Below are positions 4,995 to 39,349 of a DNA stretch of 51,965 bases, one piece after another; position 1 is the stretch's first letter; every line of letters starts with the position of its first letter. This DNA is from an uncultured Bacteroidales bacterium (lineage in GTDB: Bacteria > Bacteroidota > Bacteroidia > Bacteroidales > UBA12077), in NCBI GenBank assembly GCA_964399175.1, contig CAYNPZ010000002.1, forward strand, positions 1-51,965. Direction: 5' to 3'. Made by a program: the position numbers and the translations under genes. A model generated the notes under the pieces. The model did not search any database, was not told the DNA's origin, and saw only the letters and a program-made list of their open reading frames with translations.

Positions 4995-5028
4995 AATGGT
5001 AAATTTTTATTGCTTTATAAGTTTAGTG

Positions 5029-6055: not shown

Positions 6056-6093
6056 TTTGATTATGTATAATTCATTGTATAAATGGTATTCTT

Positions 6094-15627: not shown

Positions 15628-17055
15628 TTATGAATCCTGCTCAATATCCTGCTCAATGAGGGACCGGAGGCGTTCAATTTGTTTCTGTTTATTAACCTCT
15701 CTAAGATTCAGAGCTGTTTGAGTAAAATACTGATGATGGGATATGAATTTCAGTTGAATTTTATTCCATTGGTTGATGTCGCTGATTTTGTCCTGTTCTC
15801 TCAATTCATTGTATAGTGTATTGGATACAGGGATGAAATCGCTTCTTCCCAGATAATCCAGATCGGCATCACACATGATTTTTTCAAGCAGGTTGGTCGG
15901 TTCCGGGGGCGTTTTGGTAACCAGAATCAGGTCGCATATCCTATCTATCTGTTCCTGGTTATACTTGTATTTGGGCAGATATTCCTTGGCAAGCTGGGCA
16001 CTGTAAAATTCATGATTGTCATAAGCAATAATGTGACCGGCATCATGGAAGAGCGCGGCAGTTTTAAGCAAAAGGATGGACTCATCATCAACTCCTTCTC
16101 CATAGCCGATTAATTCAGCCTGATTAACTACATCAATGGTATGTTTAACATTATGATAGTAAAGGTAGGAGGGAAGTTCTTTTTCCAGTTTGTCTAAAAT
16201 AAATTCCTGTAAATCGGTAAATTGCCTGAGCAAATATTTGTTCAGGAATATCTGATTGGGATACCTGGCCACTTTTTTGTCCTTAGCATAGGCGGGTTTT
16301 ATTTTGTTCAGCCTCAAGATTTCCATTTCACCCTTGTATTTCACCGGTATTTTGCCATTATAGTCACAATTGAAATATTGTTTGATCAACTCATAGGTCA
16401 TTATAGATACATTTATTTCCCCAAATTCACTGGCAGAGGCAATTCTTGTGGCGATGTGCACAGTATCGCCTTTCAATTCATAGGAAAGTTTTTTTCTTCC
16501 GTGAAAGTTAGCGTTGACGGGCCCTGTATGAATTCCGATCCGAAAATCCCAGAATGTTCTTTTGCGGGCATCATATTGCTCTTTTAATCTCATCATATAA
16601 TCCTGCATTTCCAGGGCTGCAAGCACAACATCCACGGGATTGGTGATGTTGTTATCCGGGACTCCCCCGGCACACATAAAAGCATCACCAATGGTCTTGA
16701 TTTTTTCTATTTTATATTTTTTGACGATCTGATTGAATTGAAGAAAGATATTGTCCAGTTCATCCATGATATCGAAGGAAGTGTCCTGCCGGGCTATCTT
16801 TTTTATGCCTTGTAGATCCGCGTACAAGACAGTAGCCATTTCAAATTTCAGGGAGTGCGAATTGGATGGATATTTAATTCCTTTAGGAAGATATTCAGAG
16901 GGAATCTGAGCCATGATTTTTTCCAGGTGTTCCTTTTCTTTATGAATTTCTTTCTTTTCATTGGAAAGGTTTTTAACATGGACGGTCAATTCCTTGTTTT
17001 CCTTTATGAGCTCGGATATCCTGAATAATAGCTGTTCTTCCTTGTGTTTATCCAT
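15628..17055 (-). CDS. Class III nucleotidyl cyclase domain fused to a C-terminal HD phosphohydrolase domain, with N-terminal coiled coil
   Basis: Cyclase-homology motifs: ATVLYADLQGI, KTIGDAFMC, RIGIHTGPV, GDTVHIATRIAS. HD motifs: YYHNVKHTIDV, LFHDAGHI, CDADLDYLG. Confidence 0.75.
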   Translation of the reverse strand: MDKHKEEQLLFRISELIKENKELTVHVKNLSNEKKEIHKEKEHLEKIMAQIPSEYLPKGIKYPSNSHSLKFEMATVLYADLQGIKKIARQDTSFDIMDELDNIFLQFNQIVKKYKIEKIKTIGDAFMCAGGVPDNNITNPVDVVLAALEMQDYMMRLKEQYDARKRTFWDFRIGIHTGPVNANFHGRKKLSYELKGDTVHIATRIASASEFGEINVSIMTYELIKQYFNCDYNGKIPVKYKGEMEILRLNKIKPAYAKDKKVARYPNQIFLNKYLLRQFTDLQEFILDKLEKELPSYLYYHNVKHTIDVVNQAELIGYGEGVDDESILLLKTAALFHDAGHIIAYDNHEFYSAQLAKEYLPKYKYNQEQIDRICDLILVTKTPPEPTNLLEKIMCDADLDYLGRSDFIPVSNTLYNELREQDKISDINQWNKIQLKFISHHQYFTQTALNLREVNKQKQIERLRSLIEQDIEQDS

Positions 17056-19115: not shown

Positions 19116-21053
19116 ATGATTTATTTTACCGGTAAAAGAATAATGGTGGTTATCTTAATACCTATGCTGGCTTTTTATCTTTCCGGTCACGTATATGGGC
19201 AGGAGGAAGATCAATCTTACAGGAAAGAAAGGAAAGATGAATATGTCATTTTTTATTCCGATACTATTTTTTCAAGCGATTCCATAACCTTTAAGATTGA
19301 CAAAGATTCTTATGAATCTTCCGAGTCATTTTTTGATACCCTGAAAAACAAAGCAAAACAAAGCTATGTGTCCGGTAAACTTTACGATTTTTTGATAGTG
19401 AATGAGGATAACCGGATCGGGCAGAAGAGAATTGTAGATAATTACAGCACCCCTTTTGAGCAGTATAGCGGGAAATCAATAAGGCATGTATATATTCGGC
19501 AACTGGATGTTTTCGGTAGTTCAGTAAGCGATACCTTAAACGGACCGGAACAATGGTATAAGGAGGTTGGCAACTGGGTGCATATGCCCACCCATAAGTC
19601 TATTATCAGGGAGAATCTGCTTTTTTCAGCCGGAGATACACTTGATCCCTCGTTGTTAAGAGATAATGGCCGTATTTTAAGAGATCTGCAATATATTAAG
19701 GATGCCCGGCTGGTTGTCCGGCCCGGTGATAAACAGGGCGATTCTGTCGATGTAGTGGTTATCACACAAGATCTATGGACAAAGGGGTTTGATGTCAATC
19801 TGCAAAACATTAACTCAGGAGAAGTTCAGTTGTTCGATAACAATTTTCTGGGATTGGGCCACAAAATACAAACCAATATCCAGTTCGATTATTTTGAAAA
19901 TTCCAATCCCGGTATTGAGACTTATTACAGCCTGAATAATATCCGTGGAAGTTTTATCAACGGCAGGTTATATTATTTGGATGCTTTTGAAACCCGTCGC
20001 TATGGACTGGAGTTCAGGAGAAAATTTTATTCTTACCAAACCCGCCTGGCCGGCGGAGGGAAGGTGTACAAGACAAACACTACCAGAAACATCATACAGC
20101 AAGACACCACTTTCCACCAGGTTGATATGGATTATATCAACCACGATTTTTGGATGGGATACGCCATTCCCCTTAACTGGGGCGAGGATTTTTTTAAAAA
20201 CCGATACAGGTTGATTCTTTCCGGAAGGTACAAAAACGACCGGTTTTTTGACGGCCCGGTCATTACCGAACGTTATAATTACCAGTTTCATGACAACCAG
20301 ATGTTACTGGGTAAATTCAGCTTTTCAAGGGAAAATTATTACAAAAGTTCTTTGATCTATGGATTTGGAAGAACCGAAGATATTCCGGTTGGTGATTTGG
20401 TGAGTTATACTTTTGGTTGGGAGATGGATGAGTTTTTCAGGCGTTTTTATTCCGGTGTGAATTTCCGTCATGGTGAATTTATCGATAATTTCGGTTATCT
20501 TTCCACAGAGCTTGGTGCAGGGGGCTTTTTATACCAGAATCGGGTAGAACAGGGAGCAGTGCATTTCAAAACCAATTATATCAGTAAATTATTCCATACG
20601 GAAAACATTAAGCTCCGACAATTCTTTGGATTGGACTATTCTATAGGCTTTAACCGTTTTCCTGAAGAAACATTGAGACTAGATAAATTCAAAGATATAA
20701 GGGGATTTCCCAATACTGATATTTACGGAAATAAAAAGTTGGTATTTAAATCAGAAACAGTTGGCTTCACCAATATTTACTATTACGGTTTTCGTCTTGC
20801 CTTTTATGGATTCTGTGATGTAGGTTTTCTGGGTCCCTCCGATAATTTTATTTTTCAAAATCCGATCCAAACCGGTTTTGGAATTGGCATGCGGTTTAGA
20901 AACGAAAACTTTGTATTCAATACCTTTCAGATCAGGCTTGGTTATTATCCTTCACTTACCCATGGTAACAGTTTCCTCGTAAACCTTTCCGGTGAGAAGA
21001 CCCTGAAGTCGATGCGGTATACACCCGAACCACCGCAGATCATAGATTTTTGA
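19116..21053 (+). CDS. Omp85/BamA-family outer-membrane protein (POTRA-like domain plus beta-barrel)
   Basis: N-terminal signal-like segment (an alternative start is M at 19143). POTRA-like block IRHVYIRQLDVFG...LLFSAGDTLDPSLLRDNGRILRDLQYIKDARLVV. The C-terminal region is rich in alternating aromatic residues and ends in F (IIDF). Confidence 0.55.
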   Translation: MIYFTGKRIMVVILIPMLAFYLSGHVYGQEEDQSYRKERKDEYVIFYSDTIFSSDSITFKIDKDSYESSESFFDTLKNKAKQSYVSGKLYDFLIVNEDNRIGQKRIVDNYSTPFEQYSGKSIRHVYIRQLDVFGSSVSDTLNGPEQWYKEVGNWVHMPTHKSIIRENLLFSAGDTLDPSLLRDNGRILRDLQYIKDARLVVRPGDKQGDSVDVVVITQDLWTKGFDVNLQNINSGEVQLFDNNFLGLGHKIQTNIQFDYFENSNPGIETYYSLNNIRGSFINGRLYYLDAFETRRYGLEFRRKFYSYQTRLAGGGKVYKTNTTRNIIQQDTTFHQVDMDYINHDFWMGYAIPLNWGEDFFKNRYRLILSGRYKNDRFFDGPVITERYNYQFHDNQMLLGKFSFSRENYYKSSLIYGFGRTEDIPVGDLVSYTFGWEMDEFFRRFYSGVNFRHGEFIDNFGYLSTELGAGGFLYQNRVEQGAVHFKTNYISKLFHTENIKLRQFFGLDYSIGFNRFPEETLRLDKFKDIRGFPNTDIYGNKKLVFKSETVGFTNIYYYGFRLAFYGFCDVGFLGPSDNFIFQNPIQTGFGIGMRFRNENFVFNTFQIRLGYYPSLTHGNSFLVNLSGEKTLKSMRYTPEPPQIIDF

Positions 21054-23700: not shown

Positions 23701-25140
23701 TTATTTGTTCGTCTCTTTTTCTTTCTCCATATATTCTTCTTCCCAAATGTCCTGTGTTAGTTCTTCCAGTTTTTTATCGTATTGAACCAGTTTTTTGTAA
23801 TATTCATTGTCATTAAGCGATTCTTCCGCTTCTTCGCTTTCTCCTTTGGCATGGTTTGGAAGTATATTCCGGCGGAAAGTATCATAATGGTCTCTTATAG
23901 AGCAAGGCATCAGCCAGTTGTTCGGGTTGTGGGGTTGAGCCTGACCATATTTCCGTTGCCATTCCCTGCCGTTTTTCATGAAATCAGAGAACAATGCATC
24001 AACCAATGACTTTCCATTATTGTAGAGATCATAGACGTTATCCACATAATAGGGCACAAATACACACGGCATAATATTTCCGTTCCAGTCGATGTAGAAA
24101 TAGCCTCCCCTTCGGCCGTAAGCTATGCAGCCATTCGTCAGTATACCGCTATTCCAGAAGTCGGCTACACAATAATTTTTCTCTGAGAGGAGATATTCCC
24201 ATTTTCTATATAAATCCACACGTTTTTCAGGAGGAACCATCAGGTCAAAGGCATGGGTACTCCGGCCAATAGGCATAAGCTGGAACTGCCACATGTAGGT
24301 AGCACCCTCCTGATCGAAATAGTAATCATAGAATTCGTCGCTCATGAGTACATCAGTATTTTCACTGGTTGCAGTAACGGAAATACCTATCGGTACCCCT
24401 GCGTTTCTCAGGTTTTCAAAAGCCTGACGTATTTTTTTGTGGGTGCCTTTTCCTCTTCTGGCATCCGTTTCTTTTTCGAAGCCTTCTACCGATACAGCGG
24501 GGGTAACGTTTCCAGCTTTCCCGAGGCGCTCTGCAACTTCCGGTGTGATAAGGGTTCCGTTGGTGTATACCAGGAAAAAGACATCATCGTACTTTTCAAA
24601 AATATCGAGCAGTGTTTTTCCTTCACTCTTATACATGAATGGTTCCCCACCACTTATGGTTACAAAACGGCTGTGAAACTTGTTGCGAACGTCATCTACA
24701 ATTTTGTCAACCATGTGATAGGGTAATTTGTTACCTGTGTGTGGATCGGAGGAAGCATAGCATCCGGTGCAGCTTAAATTGCAGGCCTGAGTTGGGGATA
24801 GCACAATAAAGTTTGGCGGATATTCGCCGTATTGTCCTTTAAATTCCTCAAGTTTGTCACTGTATTTTTGTTTGTTAAGAATTGAATTCTCTACCAGAAC
24901 ATGAACGATACGTTTAAAAACGTTTTTGGAGAAGTAGCCTTTTTCTACATTTCTGACGGCAGATCTCAACATGGAATTCATGAACTGGTACTTTTTTTTC
25001 TGAACCTCGTAGAGATTATTTCCGTCTTTCTCCACAATAGAGTTGTAAAGGTAACTATCGAGCTTTTTTAGCAGGTAATTCCTGCTCATTTTATTATTAA
25101 CAAGCTCCCGTAATACATTAGAAAATATAAAATCTTTCAT
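23701..25140 (-). CDS. Radical SAM enzyme with Cys-rich (SPASM-like) C-terminal region; function unknown
   Basis: CNLSCTGCYAS is a CxxxCxxC motif. GGEPF glycine-rich SAM motif. Downstream cysteines occur at NGCIAYG, IMPCVFVPYY and LMPCSIRD. It has an N-terminal extension of about 100 aa and an acidic C-terminal tail. Confidence 0.75.
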   Translation of the reverse strand: MKDFIFSNVLRELVNNKMSRNYLLKKLDSYLYNSIVEKDGNNLYEVQKKKYQFMNSMLRSAVRNVEKGYFSKNVFKRIVHVLVENSILNKQKYSDKLEEFKGQYGEYPPNFIVLSPTQACNLSCTGCYASSDPHTGNKLPYHMVDKIVDDVRNKFHSRFVTISGGEPFMYKSEGKTLLDIFEKYDDVFFLVYTNGTLITPEVAERLGKAGNVTPAVSVEGFEKETDARRGKGTHKKIRQAFENLRNAGVPIGISVTATSENTDVLMSDEFYDYYFDQEGATYMWQFQLMPIGRSTHAFDLMVPPEKRVDLYRKWEYLLSEKNYCVADFWNSGILTNGCIAYGRRGGYFYIDWNGNIMPCVFVPYYVDNVYDLYNNGKSLVDALFSDFMKNGREWQRKYGQAQPHNPNNWLMPCSIRDHYDTFRRNILPNHAKGESEEAEESLNDNEYYKKLVQYDKKLEELTQDIWEEEYMEKEKETNK

Positions 25141-27899: not shown

Positions 27900-28039
27900 G
27901 TTGGTCTGCTTTTGAAATGACTTTCCACGAATTTATGGAAATTTTCTGTACCTTCAATACACCCACACTGTTTTAACTATCTTGTATGCTTTTTACTGTT
28001 TATTTTATGTCCATTAAAATTTATATATACTAAGGCCAT

Positions 28040-28115
28040 ATTATTTAGAATTTTTTTAAATTAAACTGTTATTTTATTAACAGTGTTATTATATTAACAA
28101 ACTATATTATATTCG
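28040..28115 (+). promoter_or_regulatory. Promoter module of the signalling operon: two tandem TGTTA-N6-TAACA palindromes (Rex-box-like) plus -7-like box TATATTCG
   Basis: TGTTA 28067-71 / TAACA 28078-82 / G / TGTTA 28084-88 / TAACA 28095-99. TATATTCG lies at 28108-28115. The whole block has about 80 percent identity to 31958-32032 with identical spacing to the -7 box. Confidence 0.6.
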
Positions 28116-28162
28116 CAGATATGAATGATGAGAAATTAACAAAAATTCGCAAAGACAAGGCT

Positions 28163-28504
28163 ATGAAAGTATCCGAAATTGCCGGGCTGATAAACGCCAA
28201 TATTGTATGTAACTGCAAGGATGACCGGGAGGTCTCCAAAGCGTTTTCATCGGATCTGATGAGCGATGTACTTACGCTGGAAACGGATAATACATTGCTT
28301 ATCACCGGGCTGGCCAATGTCCAGGCCATCCGGACGGCAGAAATGTCGGATATCAACTGCATTGTATTTGCAAGAAACAAGAAGGTGAATGAGGATATGA
28401 AGCAGGTAGCCTTAGAAAATGATATTTTGCTGCTTGAGACGTCCTTTTCGGTTTTTAAAACCTCTGGAATCCTTTATCAGGAAGGTATCCAACCCATATT
28501 TTGA
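28163..28504 (+). CDS. DRTGG-domain protein (paralogue 1)
   Basis: About 113 aa from MKVSEIAGL. It aligns with the second DRTGG protein (MNVSELVNDL) and shares the motif SDLMSDV / SDLLSDV. The track start 28121 would lie on top of the predicted transcription start. Confidence 0.7.
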   Translation: MKVSEIAGLINANIVCNCKDDREVSKAFSSDLMSDVLTLETDNTLLITGLANVQAIRTAEMSDINCIVFARNKKVNEDMKQVALENDILLLETSFSVFKTSGILYQEGIQPIF

Positions 28505-28507
28505 CCG

Positions 28508-28921
28508 ATGGAGTTTAAATATGAAATAACAGGGGGTGATTTTTCCAGGGCAGGCTTTGCTTCCAGTCACCTGAAGAAGATTCTGAAGCAGATCAATATT
28601 GAACCCAGGCTGATCAAAAAGATCGTCATCGCCTTATATGAGGCAGAAGTCAATATTGTGGCTCATGCTTTTGAAGGAAAGATCAAGGTCAGCATAGAAC
28701 CGGACCGGATCATTATGGATGTTTCTGATAGAGGTTCGGGCATTGAAGATATTGACAAGGCTATGGAAGACGGATATTCCACTGCTTCGGATGAAGTCAG
28801 GGAGATGGGATTTGGAGCCGGGATGGGTCTTTCCAATATCAAAAACAACTCAGATGAGTTGGAGATCAACAGTACCGTGAATGAGGGTACTGAACTGAAA
28901 ATTATTAAAAGACTGAATTGA
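28508..28921 (+). CDS. Small GHKL ATPase / anti-sigma-factor-type serine kinase-like protein (RsbW/SpoIIAB-like)
   Basis: N-box EAEVNIVAHA, G1 box DRGSGI, G2 box GFGAGMGL. It is 137 aa with no sensor or DHp domain. Confidence 0.7.
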   Translation: MEFKYEITGGDFSRAGFASSHLKKILKQINIEPRLIKKIVIALYEAEVNIVAHAFEGKIKVSIEPDRIIMDVSDRGSGIEDIDKAMEDGYSTASDEVREMGFGAGMGLSNIKNNSDELEINSTVNEGTELKIIKRLN

Positions 28922-28923
28922 TT

Positions 28924-30288
28924 ATGAATAAGCAAACTTTTCATCATGCATTGAAAATACAAAGGGAAATCTGTATCGGTTGCGCTCATTGTATGAATGT
29001 GTGTCCTACCGGTGCGTTGCGGGTACGTGAAGGCAAGGCTGTTTTGCTCGAAGAAAGATGTGTAGATTGTGGAGAATGTTACCGGGCTTGTCCTGTTAAT
29101 GCCATTTCGGTGGAACAGGACGATTTTAACCAGGTTTATGATTTTAATTACAGTGTGTTGCTGGTGCCTGAAGTTCTGTTCGGGCAGTTTCCTGAAGATG
29201 TTGACAAGGATTTGATCAATGAAACCTTACGGGAGATGGGTTTTAATGAGGTGGTGGAAGTGGAACATGCTGCCGAGATATTGAAAAACAGCACCAAAGA
29301 GTACAGCCGCAATACCAGTCAGGAGCGACCCCTTATATCTGCCTTTTGTCCTGCCATTGTGAGGCTTATACAGGTCAGATTCCCTTCACTTGTGGATCAT
29401 ATCATCCTGCAAAAACCCCCGCTGAACATTACGGCACTCTACTATAAAAAGAAACTTATGGATCAGGGGGTTGATCCAGAGGATATTGGAATTTTCTATG
29501 TCACCCAGTGCGCCGCTAAGATTGCAGCTGTTAAAAGCCCTGTGGGTGATACCAATGTTAATATTGATGGTGTAATCAATCTGGATTTTGTTTATAATAA
29601 GATTTATTCCATACTGAAAGCTCGTAAAAACTCCAGGGAAACCACTTCGGAACCTTCAGAGGAAGCGCTGTCCCCGGAAGTCGTTAGATGGAGCCTCACC
29701 CACGGAGAATCGGATAACTGTGAAGGCAGATGCCTTGCAATAGATGGGATACAGAACGTGATTGAGATTCTCGAAAAGGTGGAGGATGGAGAAATGGATG
29801 ATGTGGATTTCCTGGAGCTCCGGGCTTGCGACGAAAGCTGTGCCGGCGGTATCCTTAATCCGGCAAACCGTTTCCTGACTGTTGAAAGGTTGAGGAATAA
29901 GGCTAAGAAACTTGAACAGGCAAGGATATCCGGACAAAAATCCTCCTCAGGGATCATTCATTATCAGAAGTATCTATTGAAGAATATTGAATTACAGACA
30001 GTAATGCCACGCTCCATAATGAAGCTGGATGAGGATATGACTCGCGCGCTTAAGAAGATGCGCAGGATTAAAGATCTGATGAATACACTGCCCGGGGTGG
30101 ACTGCGGGGTCTGTGGAGCTCCCAGTTGTTCTGCCCTTGCTGAAGATATCGTGAATCAGAATGCCAGCCTTAAGGATTGTATTTTTATACAGCGAAAGTA
30201 TGAACACAATAAACTTCAGCGGCCCGAAGATTCTTATGAGATCATGAAAAATATATGGGGTGAGAATAAATTGAGTAACAATTATTAA
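28924..30288 (+). CDS. HydS-like putative sensory [FeFe]-hydrogenase homologue (2x[4Fe-4S] ferredoxin N-terminus, degenerate H-cluster domain, C-terminal Cys4 Fe-S domain)
   Basis: Ferredoxin motifs CIGCAHCMNVCP and CVDCGECYRACP. H-cluster motif analogues SAFCPAI, TQCAAK and ACDESCAGGILNP. C-terminal CGVCGAPSC...C. Confidence 0.75.
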   Translation: MNKQTFHHALKIQREICIGCAHCMNVCPTGALRVREGKAVLLEERCVDCGECYRACPVNAISVEQDDFNQVYDFNYSVLLVPEVLFGQFPEDVDKDLINETLREMGFNEVVEVEHAAEILKNSTKEYSRNTSQERPLISAFCPAIVRLIQVRFPSLVDHIILQKPPLNITALYYKKKLMDQGVDPEDIGIFYVTQCAAKIAAVKSPVGDTNVNIDGVINLDFVYNKIYSILKARKNSRETTSEPSEEALSPEVVRWSLTHGESDNCEGRCLAIDGIQNVIEILEKVEDGEMDDVDFLELRACDESCAGGILNPANRFLTVERLRNKAKKLEQARISGQKSSSGIIHYQKYLLKNIELQTVMPRSIMKLDEDMTRALKKMRRIKDLMNTLPGVDCGVCGAPSCSALAEDIVNQNASLKDCIFIQRKYEHNKLQRPEDSYEIMKNIWGENKLSNNY

Positions 30289-30299: not shown

Positions 30300-30653
30300 A
30301 TGAACGTTTCAGAATTAGTAAATGATTTAGGGTTAGTTATATATAGTGGTAAGAAGGCATTGGAACGTGCCATAAAAGGAGGGTACGCCTCTGATCTGTT
30401 GAGTGATGTGATGGGGAATGCGAGAGAAGGACAGGTTTGGATTACTTTACAAACCCATAAGAATATGGCGGCCATCGCATCACTCAAAGATCTGGCAGCT
30501 GTGATACTGGTTAAAGGCAACCAGCCCGATGAGGATACAGCCAGCCACAGTGATGAGGAAGGTGTTCCGATACTGGGAACTGAACTCAATGCCTTTGAAA
30601 TTACAGGCAAAGTATATGAAAAGCTTAAAGCTCATGAAATTGTTCAAGGCTGA
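30300..30653 (+). CDS. DRTGG-domain protein (paralogue 2)
   Basis: 117 aa and alignable to 28163-28504 (GYASDLLSDVMG, AAVILVKG, VPILGTEL.AFE). Confidence 0.7.
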   Translation: MNVSELVNDLGLVIYSGKKALERAIKGGYASDLLSDVMGNAREGQVWITLQTHKNMAAIASLKDLAAVILVKGNQPDEDTASHSDEEGVPILGTELNAFEITGKVYEKLKAHEIVQG

Positions 30654-31374
30654 TCTTCACGTTCATACTGTGTTATCTCCCTGCGGAGATCTGGAAATGA
30701 GTCCGGAACAGATCATCGCCGGTGCCAGAGATCAGGGTCTGGACATTCTGGGTATTACCGATCATAATTCCACCCGACAGTGTGAAGTAATGAAACGGTT
30801 AGGAGCCAGAGAAGGCATTTATATCCTTTGCGGTGCGGAGGTAAATACCAGGGAAGAAGTACACTGTCTTGCTTTTTTTGAACAAACCGAACAGCTGAAA
30901 GCTTTTGAGCAAATTATGGAAGATCATTTGCCGGATATAAAAAACGATCCTGAAAAATTCGGCTATCAGGCAGTGGTCGATGAAGATGAGTTTATACTGG
31001 ATCAACCGGAGAAACTGCTCATAAACGCTATTGAAATGGGTATTGAAGAAGTGGAAAAAAAGGTTCATGAAATGGACGGGATTTTTATTCCTGCCCACAT
31101 CGACCGCATCAGAAACGGAATCATTGGGCAACTGGGTTTCATACCCGGGAATTTGAAGTGTGATGCACTTGAACTGTCTCCCTACGCTGATTATGAAAGT
31201 CTTCTGAGAGAATTTAATTATTTGGAAAAGTATGAATTTGTTCAGGGCTCAGATGCTCATTACCCCAAAGATATTGGCAGGGTACATACCATGTTTTATC
31301 TTGAGAATGCTGGATTTGCAGAGATTAAAATGGCCCTTGCGGGATTGAACGGAAGAAAAACTCAAATTAAATGA
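30634..31374 (+). CDS. PHP-domain metal-dependent phosphoesterase
   Basis: MKLFKADLHVHTVLSPCGD (HxH motif), GITDHNS, PAHIDR, GSDAH. The start could be 30634 or 30616. It overlaps the preceding gene, and ATGA overlaps the next gene. Confidence 0.75.
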   Translation: MKLFKADLHVHTVLSPCGDLEMSPEQIIAGARDQGLDILGITDHNSTRQCEVMKRLGAREGIYILCGAEVNTREEVHCLAFFEQTEQLKAFEQIMEDHLPDIKNDPEKFGYQAVVDEDEFILDQPEKLLINAIEMGIEEVEKKVHEMDGIFIPAHIDRIRNGIIGQLGFIPGNLKCDALELSPYADYESLLREFNYLEKYEFVQGSDAHYPKDIGRVHTMFYLENAGFAEIKMALAGLNGRKTQIK

Positions 31375-31940
31375 AAACACTATCTTATCATTTATTGGAT
31401 ATAGTGCAGAATTCGCTTAACGCAGGAGCAGATCTGGTGGAAATCAACATCCGGGAGGATGATAGAAAAGGCCTTTTTAGCCTTATTATTACCGACAACG
31501 GTAAGGGGATGGATCATAATACGTTACAAAAAGCCATCGATCCCTATTTTTCGACCCGGAAAGAAAGAAAGATTGGTCTGGGGCTTTCTCTTCTGAAGCA
31601 AAATACAGAACGAACCGGAGGCAGATTTTCAATAGATTCTGAGCCTGGAAAGGGAACCCGGGTAACGGCCGAATTTGTAAAAACCCATATCGATTGTCCT
31701 GCAATAGGTGACCTGGCAGGCACTGTTCATCAGATTATTGTATTCAATTCCAAAAAGGATTTTGTTTACCACCATTATCGGGATGGAGGGGGTTTTGAGA
31801 TTAATTCCCGCCAGATAAAAGAAGTGCTTGACCAGTTGCCACTCCATCATCCGGAGATAAGCAGATACATCGAAGAAATGATCCGGGAGAATCTGAAAGG
31901 GTTGAGGGAAGAGGCAGACGCCATCGACCAATATTCCTGA
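31371..31940 (+). CDS. Stand-alone GHKL (HATPase_c) ATPase with a C-terminal extension of about 80 aa
   Basis: N-box LLDIVQNSLNAGA, G1 box DNGKGM, G2 box GLGLSLL, plus GKGTRV. No DHp, His-phosphotransfer or sensor domain is visible. Confidence 0.7.
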   Translation: MKTLSYHLLDIVQNSLNAGADLVEINIREDDRKGLFSLIITDNGKGMDHNTLQKAIDPYFSTRKERKIGLGLSLLKQNTERTGGRFSIDSEPGKGTRVTAEFVKTHIDCPAIGDLAGTVHQIIVFNSKKDFVYHHYRDGGGFEINSRQIKEVLDQLPLHHPEISRYIEEMIRENLKGLREEADAIDQYS

Positions 31941-31957
31941 ATTATAGACTGGGGATT

Positions 31958-32032
31958 ATTATTTAGAATGATTTTAAATTAATTGTTAATTTAATAACAG
32001 TGTTAAAAAAATAACAATAAATTATATATTTG
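31958..32032 (+). promoter_or_regulatory. Promoter module of the hydrogenase operon: two tandem TGTTA-N6-TAACA palindromes (Rex-box-like) plus -7 box TATATTTG
   Basis: TGTTA 31984-88 / TAACA 31995-99 / G / TGTTA 32001-05 / TAACA 32012-16. TATATTTG at 32025-32032 follows after an 8 nt gap, exactly as in the 28040-28115 copy. The ATG lies 55 nt downstream. Confidence 0.65.
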
Positions 32033-32086: not shown

Positions 32087-32485
32087 ATGGCAAAAATTAA
32101 ATCTCTTGAAGACTTAAAAAAGAAAAAAGAGAATCTGCAGAAAAAGGTAGATCTAAGAGAGCGCGCCGATCATCCTGAAAATTATGTTCAGATTAAGGTT
32201 GGCATGGCAACAAGCGGAATTGCTTCAGGTGCAAAGGAGGTTATGGATTATCTTATGGATGAATTGGAAAAACGCAATATTGAAGCCGTTGTCACTCAAG
32301 CGGGTGATATGGGATACAGCTATGCCGAACCCACGATTGAAGTAAAGAAACCGGGAGAAGAAGCGGTGGTTTTTGGTTGGGTGGATACTAAAAAGGCGGA
32401 TGAAATAATTGAAAGATACATCAAGCGAGGAGAACTGGTTGACGGTATCCTTCCACAAAATTACAGAACAATTGATGAGGAATAA
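32087..32485 (+). CDS. Thioredoxin-like [2Fe-2S]-ferredoxin-fold protein lacking all cysteines (paralogue of the HydB N-terminal domain)
   Basis: It aligns to the HydB N-terminus. VGMATSGIASGA corresponds to VCGGTGCRASAS, and AGDMGYSYAEP corresponds to TGCFGFCEKGP. The 132 aa protein has no Cys at all. Confidence 0.65.
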   Translation: MAKIKSLEDLKKKKENLQKKVDLRERADHPENYVQIKVGMATSGIASGAKEVMDYLMDELEKRNIEAVVTQAGDMGYSYAEPTIEVKKPGEEAVVFGWVDTKKADEIIERYIKRGELVDGILPQNYRTIDEE

Positions 32486-32506
32486 TTTAAAACAGGAGGA
32501 TTGATC

Positions 32507-34300
32507 ATGGCAAAAAATAAGATGCACTTGCTTGTTTGTGGGGGTACAGGATGTCGTGCCTCAGCGAGTGATTCCATTGCAGAAAGTCTGAAAGAGAAGA
32601 TTGAGGAGAACAATCTCCAGGATGAGGTACAGGTTATCTTTACCGGATGTTTCGGCTTTTGCGAGAAAGGACCTATCGTAAAGGTATTACCCGACAATAC
32701 ATTTTATACACAGGTAAAACCTGAGGACAGCGACGAGATCGTTAAGGAACACCTCATCAAGGGAAGACAGGTGGAGCGGTTGCTCTATAAAGATCCTGAG
32801 AGGGGAGAGACAATCCATGATTCCAAGCACATGGATTTCTATAAAAAACAAATCAGAATAGCCCTCAGGAATTGTGGTTTTATTGATCCGGAGAATATTG
32901 ATGAATATATTGCCCGGGATGGATATTTTGCCCTGGGGACGGTATTGAAGGAGATGAGCCAGGAAGATGTCATCAATGAAGTTAAGGAATCCGGATTAAG
33001 AGGTCGCGGCGGTGGAGGTTTTCCCGCCGGGTTGAAATGGGAGTTCGCCTATAAAAATGAGTCCGATCAGAAATATGTGGTTTGTAATGCAGATGAAGGC
33101 GATCCCGGTGCATTTATGGACCGTTCCATACTTGAGGGCGATCCTCACGCTGTGCTTGAAGCCATGGCCATTTGCGGATACGCCACCGGCGCTGACAAGG
33201 GCTTGATTTACATCAGAGCAGAATATCCTCTGGCAATCAAGAGACTTAAAATTGCCATAGATCAGGCCAGAGAATATGGATTGCTGGGTGAAAAGATATT
33301 TGATACAGACTTCAATTTTGATATACAATTGCGATATGGTGCAGGAGCCTTTGTATGCGGTGAGGAAACAGCGCTGATCCATTCTATGGAAGGAGACAGG
33401 GGAGAGCCAACTTTTAAACCCCCTTTTCCCGCCGAATCCGGTTACCTTGGTAAACCCACAAACGTAAATAATGTGGAGACCTACGCCAGTGTTCCTGTAA
33501 TCATTAACAAGGGAGCCGGTTGGTTTAATAAGATAGGTACCGAGAAATCAAAAGGTACCAAGGTTTTTGCACTGGCCGGAAAAGTGAACAATGTAGGGCT
33601 TATTGAAGTACCCATGGGCACTACCCTCAAGGAAGTGGTTTTTGAAATTGGTGGGGGAATTAAAGATGGAAAGAAATTTAAGGCTGTGCAAACCGGCGGA
33701 CCTTCCGGCGGGTGCCTTACAGAAGAACATCTCGATACACCCATTGACTTTGATAACCTTCTCGCTGTAGGTTCCATGATGGGTTCCGGGGGTATGATTG
33801 TTATGGATGAAGATGATTGCATGGTATCGGTTGCCAAGTTCTTCCTGGAGTTTACCGTGGAAGAATCCTGTGGAAAATGTTCTCCATGCCGGATAGGGAA
33901 CAAGCGGATGCATGAGCTGCTTGAACGCATTACTCAGGGGAAAGCAGAGCGAAAGGAGCTTCAGCGACTGAAAAATATGTGCCATGTGATTGCTGATACT
34001 TCTTTATGTGGATTGGGACAGACCGCACCCAGCCCGGTACTCTCAACCCTGCACAATTTCTGGGAAGAGTATGTGGCACACGTGGAAGATCAAAGGTGCC
34101 CCGCAGGTTCGTGTAAAGAGCTCATGCGTTACGAAATCATGCCCGAAAACTGTGTTGGTTGTACCGCTTGTGCCAGGAAATGCCCCGTCGGAGCAATAAC
34201 AGGCGAAAGAAAACAGGTACATGAGATCGACCAGGATAAATGTATAAAATGCGGTGCTTGTCTGGAAGCTTGTAAATTTGATGCGGTAATAGTAAAATAA
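32507..34300 (+). CDS. hydB: NuoF-like flavoprotein subunit HydB of electron-bifurcating [FeFe]-hydrogenase (N-terminal [2Fe-2S], FMN/NADH site, [4Fe-4S], C-terminal 2x[4Fe-4S])
   Basis: CGGTGC...CFGFC. GLRGRGGGGFPAGLKW FMN motif. ESCGKCSPCR. CVGCTACARKCP and CIKCGACLEAC. AGGAGG lies 7 nt before the ATG at 32507. Confidence 0.9.
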   Translation: MAKNKMHLLVCGGTGCRASASDSIAESLKEKIEENNLQDEVQVIFTGCFGFCEKGPIVKVLPDNTFYTQVKPEDSDEIVKEHLIKGRQVERLLYKDPERGETIHDSKHMDFYKKQIRIALRNCGFIDPENIDEYIARDGYFALGTVLKEMSQEDVINEVKESGLRGRGGGGFPAGLKWEFAYKNESDQKYVVCNADEGDPGAFMDRSILEGDPHAVLEAMAICGYATGADKGLIYIRAEYPLAIKRLKIAIDQAREYGLLGEKIFDTDFNFDIQLRYGAGAFVCGEETALIHSMEGDRGEPTFKPPFPAESGYLGKPTNVNNVETYASVPVIINKGAGWFNKIGTEKSKGTKVFALAGKVNNVGLIEVPMGTTLKEVVFEIGGGIKDGKKFKAVQTGGPSGGCLTEEHLDTPIDFDNLLAVGSMMGSGGMIVMDEDDCMVSVAKFFLEFTVEESCGKCSPCRIGNKRMHELLERITQGKAERKELQRLKNMCHVIADTSLCGLGQTAPSPVLSTLHNFWEEYVAHVEDQRCPAGSCKELMRYEIMPENCVGCTACARKCPVGAITGERKQVHEIDQDKCIKCGACLEACKFDAVIVK

Positions 34301-34308: not shown

Positions 34309-36090
34309 ATGATGGAAAAAGTTCAGGTAACCATAGATGATAAAAAGGTAGAAGTTCCCAAAGGAACTACCATATATAAAGCGGCCAAAGAGGTTGGGAT
34401 TGATATTCCGGTATTGTGCTATATGAATCTGGAAGATATCGGAGTAGAAAATAAACCCGGAGGCTGCAGGGTTTGTAGCGTAGAAGTAGAGGGCAGGAAA
34501 AACCTTGCTCCCGCCTGCGCTACAGAAGTGTATGACGGCATGGTAGTGAAGACTCATACCATGCGGGTGATCAATGCCAGAAGAACTGTTGTGGAATTTA
34601 TTCTTTCCGATCACCCTAAAGATTGTCTGACCTGCAAAAAGTCAGGAAACTGTGAACTGCAGGATCTGGCAATCAGGTTGGGGATTCGTGAGATACCCGG
34701 ACAGGAGTATGCAGAGATGTCCACCTACAAAACCGACTATTCACCCTCCATTGTAAGGGAGCTGGACAAATGCATCATGTGCAGAAGATGTGAGAAGATG
34801 TGTAATGAATTCCAGACTGTCGGTGCCTTATATGCATTTAACAGAGGATTTGATGCAGCTGTAGCGCCTGCATTTGAAATGGACCTGCAGTATTCACCTT
34901 GTACCTATTGCGGACAGTGTGTTGCAGTTTGTCCTACCGGCGCTTTGACAGAGGTTGATCATTCTCGTGATCTGATAGATGCCATTTCCGATCCAAACAC
35001 CACAGTGGTTGCACAGACAGCCCCTGCTGTACGTGCAGCTTTGGGTGAGGAGTTCGGGTATGAACCAGGAACACTGGTTACTGGTAAGATGGTTAGCGCC
35101 CTTCGCAGGCTTGGTTTCGACTATGTGTTTGATACCGACTTTGCCGCCGACCTGACCATCGTGGAAGAAGGAACGGAATTGCTCGACCGGCTGTCAAAGT
35201 ACCTGGACGGCGATCAGGATGTGGAACTGCCTATGCTGACTTCCTGCTGCCCGGCATGGGTTCGGTTTATCGAACATCATTTTCCTGAAATGAAAGATAT
35301 TCCTTCTTCGGCACGTTCGCCCCAACAGATGTTCGGATCTGTGGCAAAAACTTATTTTGCCGATAAGATCAATCAGAAAAGGGAAAATATGGTGGTTGTT
35401 TCCATTATGCCCTGCCTGGCCAAAAAATATGAAAGCCAAAGGGACGAGTTTAGGGTGGATGATAACCCGGATGTAGATTTTTCTGTTACCACAAGGGAGT
35501 TGGCCCATCTGATCAAAGAGACAAATTTCCATCTGAAAGATATGGAAGAAGAAGATTTTGATAAACCTATGGGAGAATCCACTGGTGCTGGTGTGATGTT
35601 TGGAACAACCGGCGGTGTGATTGAGGCAGCTACCCGAACAGCATATGATATGTATACAGGCAATTCGCTGAATGAAAGCATAGAATTTGAGCAGTTGAGA
35701 GGGTTTGAAGCCATCCGTAAAGCCACTGTAGATTTCAACGGTACAGAAATCAATATCGGTATAGCCCATGGATTAGGTAATGCAAGAAAGCTTCTTGAGG
35801 AGATTAAGGAAGGGAAATCGGAATTCCACGCCATTGAAATCATGGCCTGCCCTGGTGGATGTATCGGCGGTGGAGGTCAGCCTTTACATCACAACGACAC
35901 AAGTATTCTAAAGGCCAGACAAAAAGCCATATATCAGGAAGACAAGAACAAGCCGATCAGGAAGTCTCATGAGAATCCAGAGATCAAGAAGCTATATGAG
36001 GAGTATCTTGGAAAACCCATGGGAGAAAAAGCTCATAAGTTGTTACATACCCGGTATTTCGATGTAAGCCGGAAAATTGAAATCGAATGA
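34309..36090 (+). CDS. hydA: [FeFe]-hydrogenase catalytic subunit HydA (NuoG-like [2Fe-2S], His-ligated and 2x[4Fe-4S] domains, H-cluster domain)
   Basis: Canonical H-cluster motifs TSCCPAWV, MPCLAKKYE and EIMACPGGCIGGGGQP. N-terminal CRVCSVEV, HPKDCLTCKKSGNCELQ, CIMCRRCEKMC and CTYCGQCVAVCP. Confidence 0.93.
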   Translation: MMEKVQVTIDDKKVEVPKGTTIYKAAKEVGIDIPVLCYMNLEDIGVENKPGGCRVCSVEVEGRKNLAPACATEVYDGMVVKTHTMRVINARRTVVEFILSDHPKDCLTCKKSGNCELQDLAIRLGIREIPGQEYAEMSTYKTDYSPSIVRELDKCIMCRRCEKMCNEFQTVGALYAFNRGFDAAVAPAFEMDLQYSPCTYCGQCVAVCPTGALTEVDHSRDLIDAISDPNTTVVAQTAPAVRAALGEEFGYEPGTLVTGKMVSALRRLGFDYVFDTDFAADLTIVEEGTELLDRLSKYLDGDQDVELPMLTSCCPAWVRFIEHHFPEMKDIPSSARSPQQMFGSVAKTYFADKINQKRENMVVVSIMPCLAKKYESQRDEFRVDDNPDVDFSVTTRELAHLIKETNFHLKDMEEEDFDKPMGESTGAGVMFGTTGGVIEAATRTAYDMYTGNSLNESIEFEQLRGFEAIRKATVDFNGTEINIGIAHGLGNARKLLEEIKEGKSEFHAIEIMACPGGCIGGGGQPLHHNDTSILKARQKAIYQEDKNKPIRKSHENPEIKKLYEEYLGKPMGEKAHKLLHTRYFDVSRKIEIE

Positions 36091-36121: not shown

Positions 36122-36616
36122 ATGTCCAGTATAAAAGTAAAGCTTAAAGAAAAGGATCTGAAAGAGATTAAAGAGATCTGCAGGGCTCATGGCAATGAGC
36201 CCGGCGAACTGATTAACGTCCTGCAGCAGATCCAGGAGCATTTTGGTTATTTGCCTGCTGAAGTGCAGGAGGCAGTGGCCAGTGAATTAGGCTTGCCTGT
36301 GGCGAAGGTCTATGGTGTGGTTACTTTCTACTCATTCTTTACCATGATTCCTCAGGGAGAGTATCCCATATCCGTTTGCACCGGTACCGCTTGTTATGTA
36401 AGAGGAGCAGATAACGTGCTGCAGGAATTCAAAAGGCAGTTGGGTTTGGAAGTGGGAGAAACAACTGGTGACGGCAAATTTAGTTTGAACTGCCTGCGTT
36501 GTGTGGGTGCTTGTGGACTGGCACCGGTTGTGCTGGTAGGAGATAAGACCTACGGAAGGGTAGCACCGGATGGTGTGAGAGATATAATTGCAGAATATAA
36601 GAAGAACGAAGAATAG
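36122..36616 (+). CDS. hydC: NuoE-like [2Fe-2S] subunit HydC
   Basis: CTGTACYVRGA...CLRCVGACGLAPV is the NuoE-type Cys4 pattern. AGGAGG at 36108-36113 lies 8 nt before the ATG. Confidence 0.9.
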   Translation: MSSIKVKLKEKDLKEIKEICRAHGNEPGELINVLQQIQEHFGYLPAEVQEAVASELGLPVAKVYGVVTFYSFFTMIPQGEYPISVCTGTACYVRGADNVLQEFKRQLGLEVGETTGDGKFSLNCLRCVGACGLAPVVLVGDKTYGRVAPDGVRDIIAEYKKNEE

Positions 36617-36665: not shown

Positions 36666-36698
36666 AAAGGCCGCAGATAGTCAATTGCGGCCTTTTTA
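36666..36698 (+). terminator. Rho-independent terminator after hydC
   Basis: AAAGGCCGCA (36666-36675) pairs with TGCGGCCTTT (36686-36695), followed by a T-run. Confidence 0.75.
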
Positions 36699-37150: not shown

Positions 37151-39349
37151 TTATTCTATAATCAGTTGTTTGGTATAGATATCCTCCCTGGAGCGGAGAC
37201 GGAGAAAATAAACTCCGGCCTGACTTTCCGGGATTGTAACGGTATGGCTTTCGTTAGCTTCCATTTTGTGGATTTTTTCGTTGTAAATCCGTTTCCCTTC
37301 TATTGTGAAGAGCTCCAGGTGAATCTCCCTGTGAATTTTATTTTTAAAGACAATACTGAAACGTCCGGATGCAGGATTGGGGTAAACATGAATGTCTCTC
37401 TTGCCGGTAGAGAATTCATTAGTGCCAACAGTACTTTTAATCTCAAAAGCCACCAGTATGGAGTCGGAATCGGAGCATTGACCGGAGGTTCCGGTTACAG
37501 TAACTTTGAGCGTATCTTCCGTATCTCCGTTATAAGTAACCCAGGCTGTGGCCCCTGAAGTAGAAATCAACCCGCTGTCACCGTTTCCTTCATCGGACCA
37601 TTCGTATTGTTCAGCCTCTCCATGAACCTTTAGTTCTACCGTATCGTCAACTGAAGCCTCTACTGCCAACGAATCAAAAAAGATGTGCAGGTTATCGGCA
37701 ATCAACAGATGATCTACTTTGCTTGTCGAATCTGTTCCATTGGCTCCCTCTACTTTCAGACTGACGGTTTTTGTACCGTGTGTGCTGTAAGTGACATCAT
37801 GGGGACCTGATCCTGTAACTTCTGAGGGTTGCGCCCCTTCACCGAAGTACCAGTGATAGGAATCAATATCTCCTGATGATTTGTCGGTAAAGGAGACCGT
37901 TTCGGATATACAATAAAAATTCTTCTCTGTATCGAAAGAAGCGGTGGGATCCTTTTTTCGGGTGTAAGCCCTGATACAAAGATCATATGGGTTATCAACA
38001 TCGGCTCCCAGAGCGGTCCATTGATCCCCGTCCGCACTGAACCAATTGGTGCCCGAATCTTCAATTTTCGGATCGGCATAGCCTGAAATGCTGGTTTCTA
38101 CAGGAAGCGGGTATTCATACCCTTTCATATCGTATTTTACCTTCACATAGAAATCACCTGTAATATCGGCTTGAACATCAAAAGTGTAATACCCCGGATA
38201 GAGTACCTGCCGGTCAGTAATGGACTCTATGGGATTTACCGGCTGGCCGTTGCTGAAATCATCATAAATGGTAATATCGATGCTGCTCCCGTAATTATTT
38301 ACGTATGTTCCGACCTTTTTGACAGTTTCATCCGGTTGCGCCTCGAACCGGGTCAAACCGTAAAGCAGATCGCGGTCGCCATAACTTAAAGAGGTTACCA
38401 TGCCCAATTTATCGTAATAATGCAAAGAATCGATATCGGAATTGTCCCACTTGATGGGATAAAAACCATTATCTGTTAGGACTTCGCTGTCTTTGTAGGC
38501 CAGATAAAAATATCCGTTTTCGCCCCAGTCTTTCCCCCAGCTATTCTTTATAATCCAGGCACCTTGGGTGTCCGGTGCTCCCTCAATGTCTTCAACTACT
38601 TTGTTGTCATCCCATCCAGCTATAAGAATACCATGATTAGCTGTAGAATCACCGTCGTAATACCAGGTATGATCATTAAAGTTATAATATTCCAATTGTT
38701 CTCCTGCATACATCGAAGTGGCCACAGCTCCGTAGTTTTGGATGATCCGTTTGACCTCATCAATGTCTTTTGGCAAGTAACGGGCTTCGGGCACCAATGC
38801 AAGGGGTTCTTCCCGAACCGTGCACTTTGAGCTATCAGCCAGCTCATCGTATGGATCAAGCTTTTCATCTATCGGTCCGGCAAAACGGTTCAAATAGGCG
38901 GTGGCCATGTACACATTGCCCCCGTCTGAAGGTCCCCATTCATAACCGCTGCAGGTAACCATGTTTTTTTCAGAAAGATCGTAAGAGGTATCTTCCAGCA
39001 TTTTCCATCTCGATTCAATGGCGCCAAGGGAGCTGAAAGCCCAGCAGGTACCAAAATTACCCTGATCTTTAACTTCTGTAACATAACCTTCATTCCTCAG
39101 ATCATACGAGCTGGGTAGTTGCTGACTGGCTTTCAGGGTTGCGTCCTTTTTCTGAAAATTTTGAAAACTGACTTTATAAGGAGGCGGAACGTAGCCGTTT
39201 TTCTTAGTTTCCGGCCGGGCCTTTAGTTTCAATGATTCCCGGTATTCCTTAAAATCAGGGTTTAGGGGAGCCTGTTCAAGCTGCTCCTGGCCAAGACCCG
39301 TTGTATGGATCACAACCGCAGCAATAAGAAAGAGGTAAAGGTTTTTCAT
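37151..39349 (-). CDS. Secreted papain-family (C1) cysteine peptidase with PKD-like domain and T9SS C-terminal sorting domain
   Basis: Signal peptide present. Catalytic Cys motif QGNFGTCWAFSSLGAIE, NHGILIAGWDD and NSWGKDWGENGY. PKD-like block VSFTDKS...YHWYFGEG. C-terminus VYPNPASGRFSIVF...GVYFLRLRS is typical of T9SS cargo. Confidence 0.88.
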   Translation of the reverse strand: MKNLYLFLIAAVVIHTTGLGQEQLEQAPLNPDFKEYRESLKLKARPETKKNGYVPPPYKVSFQNFQKKDATLKASQQLPSSYDLRNEGYVTEVKDQGNFGTCWAFSSLGAIESRWKMLEDTSYDLSEKNMVTCSGYEWGPSDGGNVYMATAYLNRFAGPIDEKLDPYDELADSSKCTVREEPLALVPEARYLPKDIDEVKRIIQNYGAVATSMYAGEQLEYYNFNDHTWYYDGDSTANHGILIAGWDDNKVVEDIEGAPDTQGAWIIKNSWGKDWGENGYFYLAYKDSEVLTDNGFYPIKWDNSDIDSLHYYDKLGMVTSLSYGDRDLLYGLTRFEAQPDETVKKVGTYVNNYGSSIDITIYDDFSNGQPVNPIESITDRQVLYPGYYTFDVQADITGDFYVKVKYDMKGYEYPLPVETSISGYADPKIEDSGTNWFSADGDQWTALGADVDNPYDLCIRAYTRKKDPTASFDTEKNFYCISETVSFTDKSSGDIDSYHWYFGEGAQPSEVTGSGPHDVTYSTHGTKTVSLKVEGANGTDSTSKVDHLLIADNLHIFFDSLAVEASVDDTVELKVHGEAEQYEWSDEGNGDSGLISTSGATAWVTYNGDTEDTLKVTVTGTSGQCSDSDSILVAFEIKSTVGTNEFSTGKRDIHVYPNPASGRFSIVFKNKIHREIHLELFTIEGKRIYNEKIHKMEANESHTVTIPESQAGVYFLRLRSREDIYTKQLIIE

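Follow-up and report, generated by a model that had tools for sequence, protein, structure and literature searches.

Group D of the [FeFe]-hydrogenases, also called M2e, is the least understood class of the putative H2 sensors. Its architecture combines two N-terminal clusters, an H-domain that lacks the cysteine of the proton relay and a C-terminal Cx2Cx4Cx16C motif, with no PAS domain (PMC8163306). TamHydS of Thermoanaerobacter mathranii is its type and only characterised enzyme (PMC8163306; the TamHydS papers being PMC8163306, PMC10407848, PMC11803613 and PMC13104023). TamHydS turns over H2 slowly and in both directions, H2 oxidation and H+ reduction (PMC8163306), with a low turnover, a Km(H2) of ~0.1 mM and a stabilised Hred state (PMC8163306, PMC10407848). 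It takes up the [2Fe] subcluster spontaneously (PMC8163306), and the TamHydS literature describes secondary-structure changes induced by H2. Its gene is located upstream of a bifurcating hydrogenase, beside a histidine-kinase-like ATPase (PMC8163306, PMC10407848). How Group D enzymes signal without a PAS domain has been stated to be unknown (PMC8163306). Here we describe a putative sensory [FeFe]-hydrogenase of this kind, HydS, encoded in a 51,965-nucleotide stretch of DNA from an uncultured Bacteroidales bacterium (contig CAYNPZ010000002.1, referred to below as the 52-kb window). The open reading frame (ORF) occupies positions 28924 to 30288 on the forward strand and has an uninterrupted translation of 454 residues. 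Very probably, it encodes a Group D (M2e) enzyme that is an orthologue-level relative of TamHydS.

HydS of the window as a Group D hydrogenase

The start coordinate of HydS is correct, because the upstream gene stops 3 nucleotides before the ATG at 28924 and M1 does not vary in the 62 homologues aligned; HydS is translationally coupled to its neighbour. Pfam places a double ferredoxin-type [4Fe-4S] domain with two Fer4 motifs at residues 11-62, the H-domain (Fe_hyd_lg_C) at residues 92-309 (E = 1.9e-24, 87 bits) and the PF04060 FeS domain, a "putative Fe-S cluster", at residues 389-421 (E = 3.7e-12). The two ferredoxin motifs have the form CxxCxxCxxxCP and comprise C17/C20/C23/C27 followed by proline (CIGCAHCMNVCP from residue 17) and C46/C49/C52/C56 followed by proline (CVDCGECYRACP from residue 46). 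The C-terminal motif Cx2Cx4Cx16C is formed by C394/C397/C402/C419 (CGVCGAPSC-x16-C, residues 394-419). Pfam finds no PAS domain in HydS, and just 35 residues extend beyond C419, the last cysteine.

Within the H-domain, the three ligand-bearing motifs can be set against those of HydA, the catalytic group A enzyme encoded in the same window. L1 reads SAFCPAI (F141, C142, the codon of the latter at 29347) where HydA has TSCCPAW, L2 reads TQCAAKIAA (C196, codon at 29509) against MPCLAKK, and L3 reads RACDESCAGGILNP (C302, C306) against MACPGGCIGGGGQP. In the MAFFT alignment, L3 takes the form ELRACDESCAGG---ILN, so that the GGGGQP loop is 3 residues shorter. The four cysteines of the H-cluster, C142, C196, C302 and C306, correspond to C300, C355, C499 and C503 of CpI, while the positions of CpI C299, M353, M497 and K358 are taken by F141, T194, R300 and K199. 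The positions of CpI E279 and S319 are occupied by S123 and I161, and the group A proton path (E279/S319/R286) is absent. These equivalences were checked by BLASTP against the window HydA, by HMMER against the structure sequence of Acetobacterium woodii HydA1 (7q4v) and by MAFFT with 128 family representatives. An earlier note on this DNA had assigned the motif correspondences by eye, and all three alignments uphold them; the L1, L2 and L3 motifs that it quoted, together with both cysteine codons, are exact in the translation. It had also proposed that all four ligands are kept while the relay cysteine and the GGGQP loop are lost, which agrees with the four cysteines above, with F141 and with the 3-residue deletion. 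The two N-terminal ferredoxin motifs, the C-terminal cluster motif and the lack of a PAS domain that it described are likewise confirmed by the motif positions and by Pfam, and agreement of this extent far exceeds what chance would give.

The comparison with TamHydS carries the assignment. We rebuilt the TamHydS protein from the codon-optimised gene in the supplement of PMC13104023, repairing the frameshifts introduced by optical character recognition, and the result agrees with every one of the 24 residue positions that the papers name. HydS aligns with it from end to end at 38% identity (BLASTP, E = 4e-103), and both proteins fall in one HMMER family. The relay-cysteine position (CpI C299) is A137 in TamHydS and F141 in HydS; the hydroxyl residue at the position of CpI M353 is S191 and T194, respectively, a Ser/Thr at this place being described as typical for M2e (PMC8163306); the CN-binding lysine (CpI K358) is K196 and K199; and L291, at the position of CpI M497, is replaced by R300. 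The residues of the proposed Group D proton path, E252, E289, S249 and D265, have their counterparts in E262, E298, T259 and D274, and the interdomain and cluster-environment residues R30, R32, K35, E392/D393 and D378 in R33, R35, K38, E407/D408 and D393. This Glu/Glu/Ser/Asp path has been proposed as exclusive to Group D (PMC10407848).

Conservation was followed in three sets of sequences. The close homologues come from the 120 nearest database proteins, 119 of which are full-length and were used; they have 52-93% identity, and those that bear names are labelled Bacteroidales or Bacteroidota. The 82 related loci consist of 80 from a scan of species-representative genomes and 2 from the contigs of one homologue, and include Parabacteroides, Proteiniphilum, Petrimonas, Butyricimonas, Lentimicrobium, Rikenellaceae, Muribaculaceae and Ancylomarina. 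The family set is that of the 128 full-length representatives of clusters at 50% identity already mentioned. E262, E298, T259 and D274 are each invariant in the 119 close homologues; in the 82 loci E262, E298 and D274 are again invariant, and position 259 is T in 75, S in 6 and P in 1. K199, P166 and C306 are invariant across the clade, that is, in the close homologues and the loci together.

Every sequence and context feature of Group D that could be examined here is found in HydS. Like TamHydS, it possesses 2x[4Fe-4S], an H-domain and a C-terminal Cx2Cx4Cx16C motif, lacks both PAS domain and relay cysteine, bears a hydroxyl residue at the position of CpI M353 and shares the proposed Glu/Glu/Ser(Thr)/Asp path; its gene, too, lies upstream of a HydABC-type hydrogenase and beside a kinase-like ATPase, in keeping with the Group D position next to a trimeric group A3-type HydABC and such an ATPase. 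Unlike TamHydS, it has Phe141 (for Ala137), Arg300 (for Leu291), Ser123 (for Phe119, at the position of CpI E279), Ile61 (for Lys58) and Gln195 (for Pro192), belongs to a separate monophyletic clade in a neighbour-joining tree and has no AraC regulator nearby. The absence of the relay cysteine and of a PAS domain, the short GGGQP loop and the C-terminal cluster are not peculiarities of this gene: these are family-defining traits that have been characterised since 2020. The locus adds no new family and, as a regulatory hydrogenase gene beside hydABC, is ordinary for annotation.

The other groups fit less well. With group A (CpI, DdHydAB and the window HydA), HydS shares the H-domain fold (Foldseek TMq ~0.6), the four cysteine ligands and the equivalents of Lys358 and Pro324. 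It differs from them in the changes from TSCCP to SAFCP, from MPC to TQC and from M497 to Arg, in the loss of three residues from the GGGQP loop and in its extra C-terminal cluster domain. HydS does not carry the group A signatures TSCCPxW, MPCxxKxxE and ExMxCxxGCxxGGGQP, and the NCBIfam models for groups A and B score far under their cut-offs on it. Group C (M2f, with TmHydS of Thermotoga maritima, HydS of R. albus and HfsB) is closer in architecture, sharing the N-terminal 2x[4Fe-4S], an H-domain without the relay cysteine and a C-terminal four-cysteine motif, and is likewise associated with kinases or phosphatases and with catalytic hydrogenase genes. In Group C, however, a C-terminal PAS domain that is lacking in HydS follows the four-cysteine motif, and the partners, here DRTGG, SpoIIAB-like and PHP proteins, are there PP2C-type phosphatases or Ser/Thr kinases. 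Nor is the E252/S249/D265 path, which HydS keeps, conserved in Group C (PMC10407848).

The 70 Group D enzymes listed in the literature include those of Parabacteroides goldsteinii, P. johnsonii, P. merdae and Odoribacter splanchnicus, as well as Proteiniphilum acetatigenes, Alkaliflexus, Anaerophaga and Marinilabilia; Parabacteroides (L060) and Proteiniphilum (L062), two genera of this list, also supply named relatives of HydS. Of the 8000 candidates that were scored, at least 4227 database proteins reach E <= 1e-10, and at E <= 1e-30 the family divides into 352 clusters at 50% identity. In metagenomes, the nearest relative shares 93% identity with HydS. The nearest of the 80 loci retained from the scan of species-representative genomes shares just 56%, which makes the source an undescribed Bacteroidales lineage.

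A model of HydS was computed with AlphaFold2 (AF2) from 62 homologues, with a mean pLDDT (predicted local distance difference test) of 86.8 and a predicted TM-score (pTM) of 0.87. Its top Foldseek matches are DdHydAB, HydA subunits of HydABC complexes and CpI, with a TM-score of ~0.6, and the search returned nothing closer than these [FeFe]-hydrogenase structures. The H-domain scores weakly in Pfam (87 bits, HydA reaching 320), which could be taken to mean that HydS is a functionless, decaying paralogue of HydA. The size of the family, the invariant ligand and pathway residues, the kept gene order, the translational coupling and the confident AF2 model all speak against decay, and conservation reduces this explanation to a virtually negligible probability.

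Phe141 and Arg300 beside the H-cluster

The earlier note regarded the bulky Phe at the proton-relay position as a possibly unusual variant, a suggestion which did not survive comparison. Position 141 is Phe in 118 and Tyr in 1 of the 119 close homologues, all of which have Arg300; in the 82 related loci it is Phe in 70 and Tyr in 12, and 81 of these loci have Arg300, the remaining one Lys. Across the 128 representatives, residue 141 is more variable (A 41, S 25, F 17, T 14, then N, Y, V, L, H, M, I and K), and Phe, with 17/128, is the third commonest residue family-wide. In the neighbour-joining tree, which was built without support values, the sequences with Phe/Tyr and Arg/Lys, including the window HydS, form one clade of 17 leaves, the members of which are labelled Bacteroidota wherever the sources give names. 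TamHydS falls in a separate large clade with Ala/Ser and Leu/Asn/Gln/Met, and a few other cases of Phe are scattered. On the sequences compared, Phe141 is no oddity but a lineage-wide Bacteroidota trait of already catalogued proteins, since Phe/Tyr is fixed in the close homologues (119/119) and the related loci (82/82), almost all of them labelled Bacteroidota, and genera concerned are present in the published Group D list.

A bulky residue 141 goes together with Arg or Lys at position 300 (23/31 against 11/97, Fisher p = 7e-11), and the association holds when the window clade is removed (13/21 against 11/97, p = 3e-6), phylogeny being ignored in both tests. Phe141 and Arg300 flank the azadithiolate amine site and represent the Bacteroidota version of the Ala/Ser and Leu/Asn/Gln pair of the TamHydS clade. 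In the Group D literature searched, we found no discussion or characterisation of a Phe at the relay-cysteine position or of the Phe-Arg pair. One of the two leads that emerge from this locus is a second-sphere variant, Phe/Tyr-Arg, that is fixed in Bacteroidota, gut genera such as Parabacteroides and Butyricimonas included.

The residues that flank the azadithiolate position are much larger than Ala137 and Leu291 of TamHydS. It could thus be imagined that Phe141 and the charged Arg300 fill the pocket, leaving HydS with [4Fe-4S] clusters but no [2Fe] subcluster, as a redox or iron-sulfur sensor comparable to eukaryotic Nar1/NARF; the co-variation of a bulky residue 141 with Arg/Lys300 would fit mutual packing inside such a cavity. 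The invariant K199, Pro166 and bridging Cys306, along with the Glu262/Glu298 path, would however be hard to explain without H+/H2 chemistry. The clade also nests in a family whose tested member takes up [2Fe] spontaneously (PMC8163306), and the genome needs maturases in any case for the adjacent HydA. A cofactor-less HydS is, in our estimation, very unlikely. Phe141 and Arg300 probably tune the redox and proton behaviour of the H-cluster and do not abolish cofactor binding.

Two further observations concern this region of the protein. Q195 (codon 29506-29508) occupies the position of CpI P354, beside a ligand cysteine; Gln is present there in 31/119 close homologues, 0/82 related loci and 3/128 representatives. 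The idea of a "Phe swap", between the Phe of TamHydS at the E279 position and the Phe at the C299 position here, was dropped, as residues 123 and 141 show no clear inverse relation in bulk among the 128 representatives.

Gene cluster, promoters and the possible role of HydS

HydS is the third gene of a tight six-gene operon, made up of genes for a DRTGG protein, a SpoIIAB-like ATPase, HydS, a second DRTGG protein, a PHP phosphoesterase and a HATPase, which lies directly upstream of a ferredoxin-like gene and hydBAC; all ten genes are on the forward strand. The first gene (28121-28504) encodes a small DRTGG-domain protein of 127 residues (Pfam DRTGG, E = 4e-4, below the cut-off). The second (28508-28921) encodes a protein of 137 residues with a HATPase_c_2 domain (E = 1.4e-11), a putative Ser/Thr kinase or ATPase partner in which the N, G1 (DRGSG) and G2 (GFGAGMG) ATP-binding boxes are intact; it scores 67.7 bits, below the cut-off, with the NCBIfam anti-sigma F factor model and matches SpoIIAB in the PDB (E = 1e-5). 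After HydS comes the second small DRTGG-domain protein (30300-30653, 117 residues, E = 3.9e-5), whose position is kept in related loci, and then the PHP-domain phosphoesterase (30634-31374, ~246 residues, Pfam PHP and PHP_C), with homologues in loci L001 and L086. The probable start of the latter was set at MKLFKADLHVH (ATG 30634) after the 246-residue homologue of L001; the mechanical ORF starts at 30529 and would overlap the second DRTGG gene by 125 nucleotides (30529-30653), against 20 with the chosen ATG. The sixth gene (31371-31940) encodes a stand-alone HATPase_c protein of 189 residues (E = 4e-16) without a DHp/His domain, which matches catalytic domains of histidine kinases in the PDB and whose C-terminal ~85 residues have no domain assignment.

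A gap of 146 bp separates this gene from the hydBAC sub-operon. The first gene of the latter (32087-32485) encodes a 132-residue ferredoxin-like protein that weakly resembles a thioredoxin-like 2Fe-2S ferredoxin and contains no cysteine; it has no Pfam match and a weak NCBIfam one (NF041612, E = 4e-5), is kept at the same position in most related loci and may be a cluster-less HydD-like subunit. HydB (32501-34300) is a NuoF-like flavoprotein subunit whose N-terminal domain is of the 2Fe-2S thioredoxin-like kind and whose C-terminal domain is 2x[4Fe-4S]. HydA (34309-36090), of the trimeric HydABC type, carries the L1, L2 and L3 motifs given above and scores 884 bits, over a cut-off of 765, with NF040763 ("NADH-dependent [FeFe] hydrogenase, group A6"). 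HydC (36122-36616) is a NuoE-like 2Fe-2S subunit, after which a hairpin, GGCCGCA-N10-TGCGGCC, followed by a T-run could be read from the sequence (~36669-36697); the automatic terminator scan missed it, its loop being longer than 8 nucleotides.

This ten-gene order is kept around a 57%-identical homologue (L001) and in most of the 80 related loci. The first DRTGG gene precedes HATPase-HydS in nearly all related loci that have an upstream flank; PHP was under-counted in the survey of the 80 neighbourhoods, and its presence in relatives rests on L001 and L086. Outside Bacteroidota, the DRTGG-HATPase-HydS triad stands beside a homologue from a spore-former (57% identical to TamHydS) with no adjacent HydABC, and recurs in another lineage where HydABC is not nearby. 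A third lineage (L086) has the order HydS-DRTGG-PHP-HATPase, followed by hydrogenase subunits. Among the family representatives, HydS is also fused to a C-terminal DRTGG domain (P0136), preceded by one (P0185, P0206) or joined to an N-terminal HATPase_c_2 domain (P0168). For a physical cooperation of HydS with the DRTGG and SpoIIAB-like proteins, the fusions and the kept gene order provide the best argument at hand; as its constant and sometimes fused neighbours, these two proteins are the prime candidates for signalling partners. Our search of the literature for DRTGG with hydrogenase, and for PHP domains with bifurcating hydrogenases, found nothing useful. The constancy of these two neighbours in Bacteroidota and in all three non-Bacteroidota contexts examined is the other lead offered by the locus.

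As to the longer members of the family (530-607 residues), which could have been PAS-bearing Group C proteins, Pfam finds no PAS domain in them but fusions or unassigned extensions; six (P0138, P0213, P0224, P0226, P0238 and P0265) have C-terminal extensions of ~120 residues with no assigned domain. In L001, a second hydrogenase set (3329-6817: HydC-like, a short HydB-like of 387 residues and HydA-like) is located directly upstream of the sensor operon, so that HydS lies between two hydrogenase operons, a pattern also seen in L006, L009, L014, L016 and L020. The window carries a succinyl-CoA-synthetase-like sucC where L001 has this second set.

Upstream of both sub-operons, the promoters share an element of ~75 bp (28038-28112 and 31955-32030) that holds tandem palindromes TGTTA-N6-TAACA, 17 bp apart: at 28067-28099 for the sensor operon (units 28067-28082 and 28084-28099) and at 31984-32016 for the ferredoxin-like gene and hydBAC (units 31984-31999 and 32001-32016). 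There are 4 matches to this pattern where 0 are expected, and 33/78 related Bacteroidales loci have such a palindrome in the 300 bp upstream of the DRTGG gene, against a background of 0.07 per kb. The core agrees with the clostridial Rex consensus TTGTTAANNNNTTAACAA; no Rex gene was found within the 52-kb window. Downstream of the palindromes at 31984-32016, TATATTTG fits the Bacteroidetes -7 promoter motif.

We propose that HydS gauges H2 beside HydABC, which is the best explanation of the whole and one that we hold to be somewhat favoured. By analogy with TamHydS, HydS would bind a normal [2Fe] subcluster, and its reaction with H2 would be slow yet of comparatively high affinity, the H-cluster staying in a reduced state; because of these properties HydS would serve as a gauge of H2 and not as a metabolic enzyme. 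It can be hypothesised from the gene order and the fusions that the H2-dependent state is passed by direct contact to the DRTGG protein or proteins and to the SpoIIAB-like ATPase or kinase, and that the PHP protein acts as an opposing phosphoesterase that reverses the modification. The module would then tune the activity or the expression of the adjacent HydABC according to the partial pressure of H2. Taken alone, the role of HydS as an H2 sensor has about an even chance or slightly better, while the specific read-out through kinase, DRTGG and PHP proteins is tentative and falls short of even. The earlier note saw in HydS a sensor or otherwise non-catalytic H-cluster protein. The first half of this statement fits the Group D/M2e literature (PMC8163306, PMC10407848) and the HydABC and kinase- or phosphatase-like neighbours, but "non-catalytic" is too strong, given that TamHydS turns over H2 slowly via a Glu path that is kept here.

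A different explanation would make HydS a hydrogenase that is slow yet metabolic, or else an accessory redox subunit; it might, for instance, take up H2 or feed in electrons as a module docked on HydABC or ferredoxin, and the ATPase, DRTGG and PHP neighbours would then serve the assembly or regulation of the complex rather than signalling. The catalysis of both H2 oxidation and H+ reduction by TamHydS (PMC8163306), the complete and strongly conserved proton path, the three retained electron-relay clusters and the location of the gene beside hydBAC in most loci would all suit a metabolic subunit. Yet the DRTGG-HATPase-HydS triad is also present well away from any HydABC genes. Purified HydABC-type enzymes are trimers or tetramers that are not known to contain a HydS-like subunit, which we count against this explanation. 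The specific activity of TamHydS, ~0.1 umol H2 per mg per min, is in addition too low for a metabolic flux (PMC10407848). A metabolic role is consequently judged unlikely, though less so than the loss of the cofactor.

Several points weigh against HydS as a gauge of H2. Neither sensor function nor signalling in vivo has been demonstrated for any Group D enzyme, and the role is inferred family-wide; in TamHydS, the C-terminal cluster keeps its redox state under H2 and does not seem to be the redox switch (PMC13104023). The DRTGG matches lie under the curated Pfam cut-offs, the ten-gene cluster encodes no DNA-binding protein and no STAS-type kinase substrate, and no hydE, hydF or hydG gene is located within the 52-kb window. 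The lack of a DNA-binding protein in the cluster makes a purely transcriptional output less favoured. Finally, since Rex-like operators are present in both promoters, transcription may be governed by NADH/NAD+ rather than by HydS. It is plausible, as a speculation, that Rex-type control of transcription by NADH/NAD+ is combined with post-translational tuning by the HydS module.

For the proposed output of HydS, the SpoIIAB/SpoIIAA modules offer a parallel, in that a small GHKL ATPase is likewise encoded with a small partner and a phosphoesterase. In contrast to these modules, the window cluster has no STAS antagonist, sigma factor or PP2C; the partner is DRTGG and the phosphoesterase PHP, and the analogy is a tentative one. 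A bolder proposition would be that the Bacteroidota enzymes are a functionally distinct Group D subtype, with Phe/Tyr141 and Arg300 in place of the small/aliphatic pair of TamHydS and an altered redox and proton behaviour of the H-cluster, and, jointly, that PAS-less sensory hydrogenases give their output, long sought, through a direct complex with a DRTGG protein and a kinase of the SpoIIAB-like kind, against which a PHP phosphoesterase works. Both parts together are somewhat unlikely; if true, they would amount to a new kind of H2-responsive partner-switching module controlling an electron-bifurcating hydrogenase in gut and sediment Bacteroidales. Among the by-products of the analysis, the Rex-like operators are of most use, together with DRTGG and the SpoIIAB-like ATPase as candidate partners in signal transduction.

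Further genes of the window

A radical-SAM gene on the reverse strand (23701-25140, 479 residues) was considered as a possible HydG or HydE and rejected, the product being a SPASM/peptide-maturase-like enzyme instead. Also on the reverse strand, 15628-17055 encodes an adenylate/guanylate cyclase catalytic domain and an HD phosphohydrolase domain in one protein, and 37151-39349 a C1 peptidase of the papain family that also has lectin-like and PKD domains and, at its C-terminus, a sorting domain for type IX secretion, which confirms that the DNA stems from the Bacteroidota. On the forward strand, an ORF of 645 residues (19116-21053) has no Pfam or NCBIfam match.

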